Of a stretch of DNA of 64,000 bases, positions 5,474 through 11,440 are shown piece after piece. Below the pieces are notes generated by a model. That model saw nothing but the letters and a program-made list of their open reading frames with translations. It searched no databases and was not told where the DNA came from. The stretch comes from Candidatus Latescibacterota bacterium (lineage in GTDB: Bacteria; Latescibacterota; UBA2968): assembly GCA_965208125.1 (NCBI GenBank), contig OZ242320.1:1440001-1504000 (forward strand), given 5' to 3'. Positions within the stretch are counted from its first letter, which is position 1. Each line of letters starts with the position of its first letter. Both the position numbers and the translations under genes were made by a program.

Positions 5474-6046
5474 ATGCGCATCATTGCTGGGGAATTTAAG
5501 GGCCGCCGCATCCCCTTTAACAACAAAAAGTACGGCAATGCCCGCGTCACATCCGACTTTGTCAAAAAAGCCGTATTCTCTTCCCTTGGCGAAATCCTCT
5601 ACGGCAGTTATTTCCTCGACCTCTTCTCCTGCTCTGGTCAAATCGGCCTCGAAGCCTGTAGCCGTGGTGCGCAGGTGGTCATCAACGAACCCGACCGCCG
5701 CTGCAACCGCTTCATCGCGCAACTCATACACAATTGGCATCTCAATGACCGCATCTATCTTTACGCGCGATCCGCACAAAAACTCCTACCTCAACTCGCA
5801 CATTCAAATGTCCTATTCGACATCATCTACCTCGACCCCCCCTATAACCAGCAATTAGACGGACAACCCATGTCCTGCGCCATACTCACCCGCCTTGCAA
5901 CAACGCCGATACTCGCGCCCAACGCCCGCATCCTCGTCCAACACGCCTCTCGTACAACACTCCCCAAATCCTTTCCCAACCTCGCCCTGTCCCGAGAAAA
6001 AAAATACGGCGACACAACATTGAGCACATACACCCTCACTTTCTAA
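5474..6046 (+). CDS. rsmD: 16S rRNA m2G966 methyltransferase
   Basis: MRIIAGEFKGR, FLDLFSCSGQIGLEACSRGA, FDIIYLDPPY, KKYGDT. Confidence 0.9.
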   Translation: MRIIAGEFKGRRIPFNNKKYGNARVTSDFVKKAVFSSLGEILYGSYFLDLFSCSGQIGLEACSRGAQVVINEPDRRCNRFIAQLIHNWHLNDRIYLYARSAQKLLPQLAHSNVLFDIIYLDPPYNQQLDGQPMSCAILTRLATTPILAPNARILVQHASRTTLPKSFPNLALSREKKYGDTTLSTYTLTF

Positions 6047-6047
6047 C

Positions 6048-6076
6048 TTGCGATCCATCGCCAAAATCACTATGTT
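6048..6076 (+). promoter_or_regulatory. sigma70-type promoter of the candidate selenoprotein gene
   Basis: TTGCGA-17 nt-TATGTT. Confidence 0.45.
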
Positions 6077-6119
6077 TTAACAATTGCAAAAGCCATTATA
6101 CCTGAAGGAGGAATCAGTA

Positions 6120-6395
6120 ATGGACAAACTCAGTTCCGCTGTCGATTTTAGGCCGCGCAGCCGCCAGCTTTACATGGGCGACATGCCCTGGCTCCCGCGC
6201 ATTACAGATAAAGCCCGCGCAAAACTGCGAGGCTGCATCGGTGACTACGTCTATCCGTGACCAGCTGACCGAAAGTTCCTGGAGGAACTCGGAGTTGAAG
6301 CTGAAGAATTTACAAACATCGTCGCATCCAGCCCGACCGATGCCGAAGTCATCGAAAAAGTAAAACCCATCTGGGACAAGTCGCATTCTAAATAA
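6120..6395 (+). CDS. DUF5069-like small protein with in-frame UGA (candidate selenocysteine, codon 47)
   Basis: AAGGAGG RBS. Translation MDKLSSAVDFRPRSRQLYMGDMPWLPRITDKARAKLRGCIGDYVYP-U-PADRKFLEELGVEAEEFTNIVASSPTDAEVIEKVKPIWDKSHSK. TGA at 6258-6260, TAA at 6393-6395 followed directly by a terminator. Confidence 0.8.
6262..6297 (+). promoter_or_regulatory. Bacterial SECIS-like stem-loop
   Basis: AGTTCC-(TGGA)-GGAACT apical stem with the loop 19 nt after the UGA. Extended by CCG/CGG and CAGCT/AGTTG. Confidence 0.7.
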
Positions 6396-6396
6396 C

Positions 6397-6429
6397 AAAA
6401 AAGCCGCCACATTGTGTGGCGGCTTTTTT
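6397..6429. terminator. Bidirectional intrinsic terminator
   Basis: AAAAAAGCCGCCACA-TTG-TGTGGCGGCTTTTTT between convergent genes. Confidence 0.85.
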
Positions 6430-6443
6430 ATTGCCATTATAGA

Positions 6444-9400
6444 TCACGACCCCAATCTTTCGCCCCCATTTCTTAGAGCCACTGGTTTTCCACCCACCGG
6501 TTTGCCAAATCCCTGTACAAAAATCAGAAAATCGCTGAACCCCACCATGCCATTGCCATCCAGATCGTATTTTTTTTCAAAACCCGCATCACCCTCCGAC
6601 AGACCAAACTTACCGGCAAAAAGCAAAAAATCTGTGAACCCTACCGCACCATCCCCATCAAAATCCAGATTTGCAACACCGATACCCGGCCTGATCAGTT
6701 TCACCTCTACGCTCTTGCCATCCTGACAGATAAACGCCACAACCGTCTGATCCTCGCCTCCATCTACAATCTCTGCCAGTTCATAGGACTGATCCAAACG
6801 CCATTTTCCGCGCACCGTCACCTCTACCTTCCGAGGCTCACTCGCCTGATTGACAATTAGCGACCCATCCTGCCGGTGCGGCGTCTGAATCTCCCAATTC
6901 CACCCAAAATCCGGATCAGCCACCGAAAGCAACAACCCATCACCTATCTCGCGGGACATCACCAAACTCGGCAAAGACACAGACTCAATCTGACCTTTCG
7001 TCGGCCTTGCATCCGCATCGAACAGCGCATAGCCCGTCGCCTTCATCCCTCGATGATGCACAATATGTGCCTCGCGATCTCGTTGCCACACATCGTATTC
7101 CGGTGAACTCGCAAACGCGCTTACCCTATCAGGCGACCTCTGAACCAGCACCGCATAGTGATATGACGCATCCTGAGGCATAGGACCGTGATCTACATAC
7201 GCCAATTCAAAAGTTCCTGTACCACCCTCTTCACCAAAATCTCCGGGGGCTTGCACCTGGCGCTGCACCCGTAGCCCTTCACCATCCGGAACCACATACC
7301 CATTGCCCAATGAATCCATCAGCCATGCCCTCTGCCCCTTTGTTCCCGCAAACGCATAAGGAATCGTCTGCACACGCTCCCCATTCACCCCCGTAGGCCG
7401 ATCCTCAGAAATAGCCGCCTGAAACAGAGGCGTCACCGTCGCATGCCCGCCATCATCATTCTCAATACCAGACCCCAGGCAAACAAGCACATCGTCAAAA
7501 CAAAACACCGTCTTAACCGCCCGAAAACTCGTATTGAATCTCGTATCGTGCAGCTTCAATGCAAACACACCGTCTTGCCCTTCAATATTCACCCCACCCA
7601 CAAAAGTCTCATCCGAAAAATTGCGGTCACGTCCCTCGTGTTTGAGCTGCTCATGGCTCAGGCGAATCACCGTCGTACCGGGCCACATACTCCAATCCCA
7701 CCCATCTCGCACAATCCCACTCGCCTCACGCGTGACCGGGTCGCCACTGCCGTAAATCAGCATCGAACCATAGCTCAGATAACGACCGAGTTGATTTTCC
7801 CCACCGGCTGACGATTCAAAATCCCACACGTACTTGCTCCACCCCTTCATACTCACCATCCAGTCCCCACGCCGATGTATGGACAGCGCGCCATAAGGCA
7901 ACGTCCAGTGCCCAGAAGGTGCAGCGATCGGCGGGTATCCCGCACTTGCAAAATCCATCATCATCTGCATCGCACCCGGCGTGTGCAAATACATAATCCG
8001 AGAAGCTACCTGTTCGAACAAACCCTCTATCAGCAACTGCGATTGAGGTCTCCAGAGTTGCATAAACGTACCCGCCAGTTCTGCATCCACCGAAGGAAAG
8101 CTCAAAGCCATATACATATACGCTGGCAAAAGACCATCGGTAACCGTTGTATTAAGCGGAAAGCGACCACCGATAGCTGTTGAAATATCATACGTATTCG
8201 TCATAACTTTGGCCGTCAACAGCGCCTGCTTCAAATTATCGCGCCTATCATCTGCAACCGCAAAAGGCGTATCGCGCAGCAAATACACCAGAATTGAAGC
8301 CACATGAAAAGCATGTGGCGCATACGCATTGGCGTAAATACCCCGATGGTGAAAACCCACAAAATCCGGCTTAATCGTATCCAACCACCCCGGCGCAATA
8401 TCCAGCGCATTATTCAACCACGCCACATAGCGATGCATATTCGCCACCTTCTCGGGCGTATCCTCCATCATCAAAATACACAACAACCGATACATCCCTA
8501 CCGAACGCAAAAAATCTGCATTCGTGCCCGGATCCCAGTCCTCTTCATATAACTCGCCAAACATGCTATACCATTTCAAACTCGCCAATTCCCGTTCCAG
8601 CCGCTCCGTATCCTCCAGAATATCCCGCATCAAATACACGGCATGGGCATAGCTCGCAATCCGCAAAAACTCGTGATGCAATGCGCCAACACCACTGCCA
8701 TCTGCCCATCCTTGATCGTGCAAATAATCGAAAACATCTATCACCCGATCACGCGCCTCATCATTCCCATTCAACCGATAATCCAGCACCAGACGCAACA
8801 AAACATTTTGAAAAACACTCTGAAAATAGGGCCTGTAGGATGATCGAGCCGCAAACAGGGGTTTACCCAGAATGAGGTCATCTTCCCGCCGAATCTCGTA
8901 ATTTGCGAGATTGCTATGCCCACGCCTTATATAGGCTGTAAGTTCATTGAGCCGAATCCTCACAGGCTCCCGCTGATCATTCTTCACCCCATCACCTATC
9001 ACCCACGCCTCATACCGCGCCGCAATCGTCTCAAGAGCCAGCCTCTCATCATCGGTAATCTGCGAAGGAAGCGGACCCGGCAATCTATTCAGACTCCATC
9101 TGTATTCGCGGGTTCTCTCGCCACTTGTATTTATACCTCCATTCACAAATGGAACCTGTGCATCGGGAGATCGCCTGGAGTCAATCCTTTCCAATAACTC
9201 CATCAAATCCAGATACACAGTCCCGCTATTTGGCGCACGGATATCAAACGCCGTCACCCGTCCATTTCTCGGACCCGTATAAGAATTATTCCGCGCATCC
9301 TCTTGCAAATTGATCCACATCGCCCGCCAGCCTGTAAAATTCAAGCCAAACTCAAATTGATAACGCGGATTATTTGCTGCCAATTCAGATCCCGTACCAA

Positions 9401-9716
9401 ACCCAAATGTCAGCACCTCATTGAGCGCCTCCTCGTTGTACACCCACGCCCGAAACCCGTTCAGTACCTCGCTGCGGCCCAGCGTGGGATCCGTGAACAA
9501 AAGCCGCCCGTTATTCTGCCATGTCCATTTGAGAGATTGTGCTCCCCATTTGTAACGCCTCGTCGAAAGCGACACCTCGCTACCTTCATCTGCCTGAAAG
9601 GCTTCTGACATCTCCTCAAAATCATAGTGCCATGGTGTATTCTGTGCCATCGCCGCATTGACCATGCCTATCGCACCCCCTGCAAAAATAATTACCCATC
9701 TCCGCAAGTCCATCAC
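6444..9716 (-). CDS. Chondroitin ABC lyase-like polysaccharide lyase family 8 with C-terminal dockerin/EF-hand-like module
   Basis: Signal peptide, SLSTRRYKWGAQSLKWTW, FGLNFTGWRA, DQGWADGSG, GFHHRGIY, GRYLSYGS, GWDWSMWPGTT. C-terminal DFDGDGAVGFTDF and DLDGNGMVGFSDF. Confidence 0.85.
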   Translation of the reverse strand: MMDLRRWVIIFAGGAIGMVNAAMAQNTPWHYDFEEMSEAFQADEGSEVSLSTRRYKWGAQSLKWTWQNNGRLLFTDPTLGRSEVLNGFRAWVYNEEALNEVLTFGFGTGSELAANNPRYQFEFGLNFTGWRAMWINLQEDARNNSYTGPRNGRVTAFDIRAPNSGTVYLDLMELLERIDSRRSPDAQVPFVNGGINTSGERTREYRWSLNRLPGPLPSQITDDERLALETIAARYEAWVIGDGVKNDQREPVRIRLNELTAYIRRGHSNLANYEIRREDDLILGKPLFAARSSYRPYFQSVFQNVLLRLVLDYRLNGNDEARDRVIDVFDYLHDQGWADGSGVGALHHEFLRIASYAHAVYLMRDILEDTERLERELASLKWYSMFGELYEEDWDPGTNADFLRSVGMYRLLCILMMEDTPEKVANMHRYVAWLNNALDIAPGWLDTIKPDFVGFHHRGIYANAYAPHAFHVASILVYLLRDTPFAVADDRRDNLKQALLTAKVMTNTYDISTAIGGRFPLNTTVTDGLLPAYMYMALSFPSVDAELAGTFMQLWRPQSQLLIEGLFEQVASRIMYLHTPGAMQMMMDFASAGYPPIAAPSGHWTLPYGALSIHRRGDWMVSMKGWSKYVWDFESSAGGENQLGRYLSYGSMLIYGSGDPVTREASGIVRDGWDWSMWPGTTVIRLSHEQLKHEGRDRNFSDETFVGGVNIEGQDGVFALKLHDTRFNTSFRAVKTVFCFDDVLVCLGSGIENDDGGHATVTPLFQAAISEDRPTGVNGERVQTIPYAFAGTKGQRAWLMDSLGNGYVVPDGEGLRVQRQVQAPGDFGEEGGTGTFELAYVDHGPMPQDASYHYAVLVQRSPDRVSAFASSPEYDVWQRDREAHIVHHRGMKATGYALFDADARPTKGQIESVSLPSLVMSREIGDGLLLSVADPDFGWNWEIQTPHRQDGSLIVNQASEPRKVEVTVRGKWRLDQSYELAEIVDGGEDQTVVAFICQDGKSVEVKLIRPGIGVANLDFDGDGAVGFTDFLLFAGKFGLSEGDAGFEKKYDLDGNGMVGFSDFLIFVQGFGKPVGGKPVALRNGGERLGS

Positions 9717-9736: not shown

Positions 9737-11440
9737 TTATGCGCGGAACAACTCGCCCATGCGCCTGCCTAAAAATCGCCCGGCCAAAAACAGACTCACA
9801 ATCAGCAACACCATACCAAAAACACCCATTGCACTGGCCAAATACGCGCCATCTGCAATGCGCCCCATAAGCGCGTAAATCGCTTTTGTGATGGGATAGT
9901 ACTCGTCCTTAAGTGCCAAAATCAAACTATCGCTCACCTCGAGCATTGCAAATGCAAAACACAAAATACCACCAGCCACCAGATTGGCTAAAATCAGCGG
10001 AAATGTAATCTGAAAAAGCGTGCGCAACCGGGACGCCCCCAAATTCTGAGCCGCCTCTTCCAGCGTCACACTCGTCTGCTGAAATCCCGCATACGCCGCG
10101 CGCACCATATAGGGCAACCGCCGCACAGCATAAGCAATAACCAGCAGTGGCACGGGATAGTGTCGCGCATCCAAAAAAGTGCCCGAATACCCTGCCAGAT
10201 ACCCAAAAGCCAGCACCAGACCGGGCAGGGCTAAGGGCAACATCGCCATCGCATCTAAAACGCCCTTATACGGAATGCGCGTACGCGTCAACAAATACGC
10301 AATAGCAATCCCCAACCCAATATCCAGCGTCGTACTCAACACACTCAATATCAAACTCATCTCAATACTGGACAGAGACATCGGATGTTCAAAAACCATC
10401 GCATAAAATCGCCCGGTCGTCTCCTGGGGTAGCACAGCCATAAACCAGCGCTCGGCAATAGACGTCAAAAACACACTCATATGCGGAATCAGAGCAATGC
10501 CCGTAAGCGACAGCATCGCGGCGTAAATCAACACCGTCATCCCGCGAGAAGCGGGGCGCGATCCCGAACTGATATACCCTCGCGCAATCATCTCATAGCG
10601 GCGATTGCCCAGCGTCGCCTTTGACAGATAAAAGAAAAAAACCGTCAACAGCAACACAAAGACAACGAGCGCGTAAGCCATCGGATTTTCGTTAATATCC
10701 TCAATAGAATTAAAAATCTCGACCGCCACGACCTGCCGATAATTAAAAATAAGCGGCGTCCCCAAATCGGTAAACGCCCAGATAAAAACAATAATCGCCC
10801 CGGCAAAATAGCCCGGCAACATCAGCGGAAATGTCACCGTGCGAAAAAGGCGAAACCCGCTACTGCCCATATTGCGCGCCGCCTCTTCCAAACTCGGATC
10901 GACATTGGCCAGAGCAGCGGCCACATTGAGATACATAATGGGATAAAGATGCAGCACCTCTAAAATTACCACACCTACAAAACCACCGCCGCCAAACCAA
11001 TCTACTGGCTGATCGATAAGCCCCAAATCCAGAAGCAGCAAATTGATAGAACCAAAACGCGCAAACATCTGCTTCATGCCAATAGCCCCTACAAACGGGG
11101 GCAAAACCATAGGCACCAGAATCAAACCATTGAGAAACCCTTTGCCCGCAAAATTGTATCGCACCAGCAAAAATGCCAGAGGCAAGCTGAGCAACGTAGT
11201 CGCAATAGTCGTAATCATCCCCAGCCGAAAACTATTGAGAATAGATTCCTGATAGACCGGACTCGTCACCATCAACTCGTAAAACGCAAACGTGAACCTG
11301 CCATCCACCACCAGCGACTGCACAAAAGCATACCACAGAGGATAAAACAAAAAAAAGGCAAAAAAGCCCATCAATCCCACCAGGAAAATGAGCGTGGGCC
11401 AATTGAGATCAAACCGCTTCATCGCGGTCCTCCGCTTCAT
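9737..11440 (-). CDS. ABC transporter permease, FbpB-like (two fused TM domains)
   Basis: Two EAA motifs (LEEAARNMGSS, LEEAAQNLGAS) and many TM helices. Confidence 0.9.
   Translation of the reverse strand: MKRRTAMKRFDLNWPTLIFLVGLMGFFAFFLFYPLWYAFVQSLVVDGRFTFAFYELMVTSPVYQESILNSFRLGMITTIATTLLSLPLAFLLVRYNFAGKGFLNGLILVPMVLPPFVGAIGMKQMFARFGSINLLLLDLGLIDQPVDWFGGGGFVGVVILEVLHLYPIMYLNVAAALANVDPSLEEAARNMGSSGFRLFRTVTFPLMLPGYFAGAIIVFIWAFTDLGTPLIFNYRQVVAVEIFNSIEDINENPMAYALVVFVLLLTVFFFYLSKATLGNRRYEMIARGYISSGSRPASRGMTVLIYAAMLSLTGIALIPHMSVFLTSIAERWFMAVLPQETTGRFYAMVFEHPMSLSSIEMSLILSVLSTTLDIGLGIAIAYLLTRTRIPYKGVLDAMAMLPLALPGLVLAFGYLAGYSGTFLDARHYPVPLLVIAYAVRRLPYMVRAAYAGFQQTSVTLEEAAQNLGASRLRTLFQITFPLILANLVAGGILCFAFAMLEVSDSLILALKDEYYPITKAIYALMGRIADGAYLASAMGVFGMVLLIVSLFLAGRFLGRRMGELFRA

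Follow-up and report, generated by a model that had tools for sequence, protein, structure and literature searches.

The window, that is, the whole stretch of 64,000 nucleotides analysed here, lies in a single-contig genome of 5.75 Mb assigned to Candidatus Latescibacterota, and all positions given without a contig label refer to it. Between 6120 and 6395, on the forward strand, it contains a reading frame of 91 codons which, read directly from the sequence, is crossed by exactly one in-frame TGA, at 6258-6260. The frame starts with an ATG (6120-6122) and is preceded by a ribosome binding site (AAGGAGG, 6105-6111) 8 nt 5' of the start codon; 46 codons precede the TGA and 44 sense codons separate it from a TAA at 6393-6395. 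Read as selenocysteine (Sec), the TGA would specify residue 47, in the motif GDYVYP-U-PAD (context GCIGDYVYP-U-PADRKFLEELG). Translation, a match to the Pfam family PF16798 and the conservation of orthologues support the delimitation of 6120-6395 as the coding sequence of a predicted selenoprotein, a short form of DUF5069. An intrinsic terminator, identified by a scan, begins 1 nt past the TAA (6397-6429), with an A run, a G+C stem-loop at 6403-6423 (its stem given by the scan as 6403-6420) and a T run at 6424-6429. The open frame with its single TGA and 44 further codons, the ribosome binding site and the terminator abutting the TAA had all been pointed out in a first-pass annotation made from the sequence alone, and translation and scanning bear them out. 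The same annotation attributed to the gene a promoter of its own, which was not reproduced: a scan for sigma-70-type promoters between 5900 and 6600 returned no sites, the promoters of Latescibacterota being outside the coverage of such a scan. A GGAG-type ribosome binding site is found at a similar distance in most of 30 orthologues, and the remaining upstream sequence is variable. Gene calls with translation table 11 yield at this locus a 58-aa ORF (6084-6260) and a spurious 107-aa antisense ORF, and nothing longer. A search of Rfam over 5900-6600, with E values up to 10, gave 31 weak matches, none of which reaches its gathering score; nearly all lie on the terminator, and none on the hairpin described below.

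Directly upstream of the DUF5069 gene lies a gene for an RsmD-type methyltransferase (PF03602, E 2.9e-39; 5474-6046, forward strand), and a PF03602 gene is also found upstream in five other Latescibacterota loci (L101, L102, L125, L127 and L129). On the other side, a convergent gene ending at 6444 (6444-9716, reverse strand) encodes a 1090-aa polysaccharide lyase of family 8, with Lyase_N, Lyase_catalyt and Lyase_8 domains. The terminator stands between the two genes and can serve the lyase gene as well, since the scan reports the site on both strands. The lyase gene separates the selenoprotein gene from that of an ABC-transporter permease (9737-11440); no lyase ORF was found between selenoprotein gene and permease in L102, a locus of the same genus, and for this reason the lyase looks like an insertion. 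Further upstream, at 1421-2839 on the reverse strand, a 473-aa protein without Pfam match is encoded, homologues of which (42-47% identical) are located a few kb from the selenoprotein gene in two other genera (L099 and L100).

Around the relatives of the gene, in another Latescibacterota family, a weakly kinase-like protein of 345-418 aa adjoins the DUF5069 gene in five of six loci (L093, L095, L096, L097 and L098), with faint matches to APH (E 6e-4) and Bud32 (E 2e-3); a conserved 125-aa protein precedes in three of them (L093, L097 and L098), and the homologue of the kinase-like protein in the genome studied here is distant, at about C1:363,700. An FNR-like oxidoreductase is encoded downstream in five loci of one Latescibacterota family. 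All ten of the Poribacteria-labelled loci examined, be they Sec or Cys forms (L146, L149, L155, L156, L160, L162, L166, L171, L175 and L181), have a same-strand gene for chorismate mutase/prephenate dehydratase just downstream. A UPF0182 protein is encoded just upstream in five of these ten. No neighbour gene common to both phyla was found in the loci examined.

Four contigs from RNA libraries of four studies, three of the libraries being labelled sponge metagenome, are 95-99% alike to the locus (6095-6382, 6062-6402, 6138-6398 and 6138-6399). They cross 6258-6260 with no difference listed there, and the nearby differences are synonymous and spare the stem of the hairpin. The contigs give no cover at 5984-6046 or beyond 6403, and three of them, from three studies, end at 6398-6402, beside the terminator, which is a weak hint of a transcript 3' end. 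Given that DNA can occur in RNA libraries, these contigs indicate presence in such libraries and may hint at expression, and are not proof of transcription.

Conservation of the in-frame TGA and its alternation with cysteine

Taken alone, a single in-frame stop in a short ORF could come from a nonsense mutation or from faulty sequencing of this assembly, or could mark a pseudogene. A TGA private to the assembly had been named as a concern by the first-pass annotation, and it is not what was found. Among 41 related genomes, 37 have a full orthologue, with TGA in 35 and TGC in two genomes of the same genus (G010 and G018). A sample of the phylum, made up of 168 genomes whose record titles read Candidatus Latescibacterota, gave matches (E <= 1e-12) in 120, all within four families of one class; TGA is present in 104 and no stop in 16, and the TGA is retained from 99% down to 43% protein identity. 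One of the stop-free matches, at 42% identity, may be a paralogue. Since 104 of the 168 genomes have the same TGA, and contigs from four RNA libraries have it too, mutation or error is refuted as the explanation, and we assign it a negligible probability.

A scan of all prokaryotes with one genome per species extended the set to 236 relatives, and the codon state was read in the best 80 of them: 61 have TGA and 19 have TGC or TGT. Among these 80, the label Candidatus Poribacteria is borne by 23, of which 18 have TGA and 5 have Cys, and a single Cys form is labelled Opitutales. Wherever the codon was read in stop-free orthologues, it was always TGC or TGT. A quick maximum-likelihood tree, built from 96 distinct proteins (77 Sec and 19 Cys), places the Cys forms in several separate clades and requires at least five changes between the Sec and Cys states; the alignment is short, and the Sec/Cys column was kept in it, which can only reduce the number of changes. 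More broadly, Cys occupies the column in 111 of 172 domain matches from the nearest 150 cluster representatives, with Ser in 30, and 11 calls end there.

The sequence 3' of the TGA is conserved as well. Residues A49, D50, L54 and F64, all of them past the TGA, are invariant in 27 sequences, and the codon-position entropy of 67 distinct TGA-form genes over codons +11 to +35 is 0.92, 0.69 and 1.56 bits at positions 1, 2 and 3, the same shape as upstream of the TGA (0.61, 0.40 and 1.30 bits). By this measure the region past the TGA appears to be coding sequence that is translated. In public protein sets, truncated calls ending at the Sec column are present, and a W at the column (YPWGADKK) is seen in the metagenome proteins P0003-P0006 and P0012. 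P0005, one of them, differs at no other residue from the TGA-bearing gene of locus L046, so the W would reflect TGA read as Trp and not a TGG codon; the W entries are probably the work of a gene caller reading TGA in this way on short contigs.

These records bear on a further explanation, namely that the UGA is a true stop, giving a 46-residue peptide, or that an ordinary tRNA (Trp or Cys) reads through it at a low level and without selenium. Gene callers do end there, a 58-aa product of the window is on record along with cluster representatives (at least 11) that end at the column, and some database entries have W in its place. However, protein-level conservation of the codons past the TGA, in an unchanged frame, extends over two phyla; the hairpin is tied to the TGA state, as detailed below; Cys is the only replacement found in genomes, and the W entry P0005 is accounted for by the TGA-bearing L046. 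We consider a stop or a selenium-free read-through very improbable.

The hairpin past the UGA and the selenocysteine genes

A SECIS-type hairpin can be drawn on the forward strand at 6274-6289, over codons K52-L57, with AGUUCC (6274-6279) and GGAACU (6284-6289) as the two sides of the stem and UGGA (6280-6283) as the loop. It spans 14-29 nt past the UGA, and its loop begins 19 nt after the TGA. The bSECIS model, as given in the legend to Fig. 2 of PMC13188914, has a loop of 3-9 nt, an upper stem of 4-16 bp, a G within the first two loop positions, a distance of 16-37 nt from the UGA and a minimum free energy <= -7.5 kcal/mol. The 4-nt loop, the 6-bp stem and the 19-nt spacing found here lie within the constraints of that legend; G is the second base of the loop and the base that follows is also G, and the 55 nt from the TGA fold with -15.8 kcal/mol. 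The bacterial SECIS geometry that had been ascribed to this stem-loop on first reading is thus upheld. The stability of the hairpin compared with shuffled sequences is unremarkable (-17.1 kcal/mol for 6250-6320, z = -1.32, with 20 of 200 shuffles as stable), and it is the relatives, not the single sequence, that point to a hairpin beyond chance.

In a gapless alignment of 62 distinct TGA-form sequences, 93.1% of the stem cells pair; sliding the 3' partners by 1-3 columns lowers this to 20-63%. The loop is invariant. Two pairs of the hairpin covary: at columns 18/31, 37 sequences have G-C and the other 25 have C-G, and at columns 17/32 the pair is A-U in 33, G-U in 20 and G-C in 9, neither being unpaired in any of the 62. 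The G-C/C-G swap divides two large clades, so that a change seen in many sequences may have happened only once, and the swap alters the encoded residues (K/R...L versus R/S/H...V/A). The UGA/TGY alternation among relatives, which the first-pass annotation had proposed to look for together with a conserved hairpin, exists, and the hairpin goes with the TGA form. Of 81 distinct TGA forms, 80 have every one of the five inner pairs, as against 1 of 20 Cys forms; the loop TGGA is present in 81/81 and 4/20, respectively, and each of the two Cys forms from the same genus has a synonymous change that disrupts one stem pair. Within the hairpin codons, third-position entropy drops to 0.47 bits. Of the 81 TGA forms, 75 encode xFLEE on the hairpin, whereas the majority of Cys forms encode FLRE, FLQK, FLEK or similar peptides. 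Part of the conservation of the hairpin is at the protein level, since it overlies the conserved F-L-E-E and 11 of the 20 Cys forms keep four of the five inner pairs.

The genome has the complete set of genes that such a reading calls for, a check also suggested beforehand: selA, selB, selC (the tRNA-SeC) and selD are all present. Profile searches gave 493.6 bits for selA and placed a SelB winged-helix domain in a 648-aa frame next to it, both genes being adjacent at C1:61055-64086. The selD gene (364.8 bits; C1:1005357-1006482, reverse strand) has one in-frame TGA of its own, on the basis of which its product is itself predicted to be a selenoprotein, and a tRNA-SeC(tca) gene lies about 100 bp from selD on the same strand. 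For TGA being a sense codon throughout the genome, as in codes of the table 4 or 25 kind, nothing can be adduced beyond the open frame. TGA is instead the commonest stop in the whole genome, closing 1353 of 3221 frames of at least 300 codons, more than TAA or TAG, and several orthologues of the DUF5069 gene terminate on TGA. Because of these two facts the genetic code is standard and the recoding local, and a reassigned code is refuted, with a probability that we regard as vanishingly small.

Taking the conservation, the hairpin and the sel genes together, we read 6120-6395 as a working selenoprotein gene with Sec at codon 47, and give this reading a probability of about 0.88. A ribosome reaching UGA-47 would encounter the hairpin with its UGGA loop, which would act as the mRNA element for SelB carrying Sec-tRNA(Sec); Sec would be inserted at the UGA and translation would continue for 44 codons up to the TAA, the expected product being a 91-residue, mostly helical protein. 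Recoding of UGA by SelB at a downstream hairpin is the textbook bacterial pathway, from which the mechanism proposed for this gene is taken.

The DUF5069 protein and the possible role of residue 47

A resemblance of the protein to DUF5069, which the first-pass annotation had noted from a sequence pattern, is confirmed by HMM search: the read-through protein matches PF16798 with 60.8 bits, against a gathering cut-off of 27 (E 2e-16). The match aligns residues 12-83 with profile positions 4-75 of 133 and does not cover the whole domain, so the predicted 91-residue product would be a short form consisting of the N-terminal two thirds of DUF5069; relatives of around 90 residues are common in public protein sets. 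NCBIfam, searched with E values up to 1, gave no matches for the read-through protein. An AlphaFold model built with 27 sequences (mean pLDDT 78.4) contains helices at 25-37, 48-57, 61-70 and 74-89 plus a short hairpin, and places Sec47 immediately before the helix 48-57, in an invariant stretch Y-x-Y-P-U/C-x-A-D. No second Cys is invariant or nearly so in the 27 sequences, and UxxC/CxxU motifs are absent, the local motif being Y-P-U-P-A-D. No thioredoxin-fold chain was present among the matches listed by Foldseek and VIA-align against solved structures.

The sole clear structural relative is PDB 3omd, an uncharacterised Leptospirillum rubarum protein deposited by structural genomics; VIA-align superposes 84 residues with rmsd 2.1 (Z 12.6), and Foldseek gives E 6.5e-5 and TM 0.78. 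It is also a relative in sequence (E 1.2e-11), and its Y-x-Y-N-C-P-L-D aligns with Y-V-Y-P-U-P-A-D. The other Foldseek and VIA-align matches are weak and helical (Z <= 4.0) and hold no functional information; the ESM Atlas, searched with the full-length DUF5069 paralogue of the genome, gave no usable match, and a literature search on 3omd found no paper on the structure. The genome encodes four more DUF5069 domains in three proteins, with Cys at the Sec position in only one. The earlier statement that this column is Cys in DUF5069 proteins holds, then, for 3omd and for the 111 of 172 domains mentioned above, and fails for all but one of the other four domains of the genome itself. Tandem arrangements of the domain are also observed: a 294-aa frame of this genome (C1:4043037-4043921, forward strand) contains two domains, with Cys only in the second, and proteins of about 430 aa from elsewhere (P0034, P0037 and P0042) contain three.

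As to what residue 47 may do, we tentatively propose, at somewhat less than an even chance, that Sec47, at the N-terminal end of a helix in the modelled protein, acts alone as a redox-active selenol. A redox role is suggested by the helix-start position, by the FNR-like neighbour in one family and by the fact that Sec/Cys pairs generally mark redox residues (PMC13188914, section 7). That the selenol would be a lone one follows from the lack of a second conserved Cys and from the location of Sec47 just before helix 2 in the invariant stretch; it would cycle via a selenenic acid or by forming a mixed selenenyl-sulfide with a partner thiol, and not through an internal CxxU-type couple. Counting against a redox role are the missing UxxC/CxxU motif, the lack of a redox fold among the structural matches listed, the fact that 3omd has no functional assignment and the lack of a neighbour shared across phyla, and the Ser found at the Sec column in 30 of the 172 related domains fits it poorly.

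The same selenoprotein gene could also encode a protein in which Sec47, instead of catalysing redox reactions, serves as a ligand for a metal or metalloid or as a chalcogen carrier. An ion, or a persulfide or perselenide, would then be held on the selenol between two chains or between the protein and a partner. A single conserved Sec/Cys with no resolving Cys would suit this role, as would the two chains contained in the 3omd entry and the metal-binding nature of many families in Table 1 of PMC13188914. Fusions of DUF5069 among the related cluster representatives include Cupin_2 in three proteins and DUF2249 in one, which also agree with it, but the fusion partners are mixed and include a methyltransferase and an AI-2E transporter (one each) as well as a hydrolase. 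Moreover, there is no other conserved His or Cys to complete a site, the invariant residues being G, W, L, R, D, K, A, Y, P and F. On balance we hold a ligand or carrier role to be rather unlikely, though it is the main rival to a redox role.

Beyond the lone redox-active selenol proposed for this protein, a broader reading has the odds slightly in its favour: short-form DUF5069 would be an undescribed selenoprotein family with a new kind of active site, a single selenol at a helix N-terminus of a small all-helical domain with no partner Cys, kept across Latescibacterota and Poribacteria, and the Sec/Cys column would mark the functional residue of the whole DUF5069 family, including 3omd.

Comparison with known selenoprotein families

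Table 1 of the review PMC13188914 (2026) compiles 119 selenoprotein families with their domain identifiers, and PF16798/DUF5069 is absent from it. A full-text literature search, with supplementary lists outside its scope, gave no paper mentioning DUF5069 or PF16798; DUF5069 is not named in the available portions of the deep-Sep and BSepDB papers, in which BSepDB is described as gathering previously reported families only. Among the matches listed in a search for literature on Latescibacteria or Poribacteria in connection with selenocysteine or selenoproteins, nothing dealt with this gene. These results and the NCBIfam search agree with the initial impression that this is not an established selenoprotein family, and very probably the family is an unlisted one. 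The Global Ocean Sampling selenoproteome article (PMC2398784, 2008) describes a 'hypothetical protein GOS_A', with two Sec sequences, 155 Cys homologues and no conserved domain at that time. Like the protein studied here, GOS_A is a predicted selenoprotein without assigned function, it is missing from the 2026 table (PMC13188914, Table 1), and, compared by that description only, it could conceivably be the DUF5069 short-form family.

Going by record titles, the organism is represented by metagenome assemblies alone. If the reading proposed here is right, it adds one more bacterial selenoprotein family, from phyla without cultured members, and corrects a systematic annotation error, in which the protein is made to end at residue 46 by gene callers or, in some contigs, is given a Trp. 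Sec/Cys pairs usually point to residues with a catalytic or ligand role, and this one would be the first functional handle on DUF5069, for which there is a crystal structure and no assigned role. The drift of the F-L-E-E peptide and its codons in Cys forms would in turn offer a natural example of an RNA element constraining protein sequence.

The evidence is of the same kind as that for the families based on DUF523, DUF1858, DUF3179, DUF166 and DUF1573 (PMC13188914), namely an in-frame UGA and a bSECIS-like hairpin just downstream, and like them DUF5069 has TGA homologues in other, presumably Sec-using bacteria, together with numerous homologues of the Cys form; it differs from them in its domain, PF16798, in lacking UxxC/CxxU and in its all-helical model. 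The solved relative 3omd shares the fold and has Cys at the position of Sec in the 91-residue protein, and differs in having 145 residues and the whole domain. In contrast to thioredoxin-fold redox selenoproteins, the predicted Sec stands here without a Cys three residues away. The textbook bacterial SECIS elements are those of the formate dehydrogenase genes of Escherichia coli, and the hairpin described here, likened to them by its constraints and not by its sequence, has a short conserved upper stem of 6-7 bp. The novelty lies in the family together with its fold and taxonomic home, the recoding mechanism being the textbook one.
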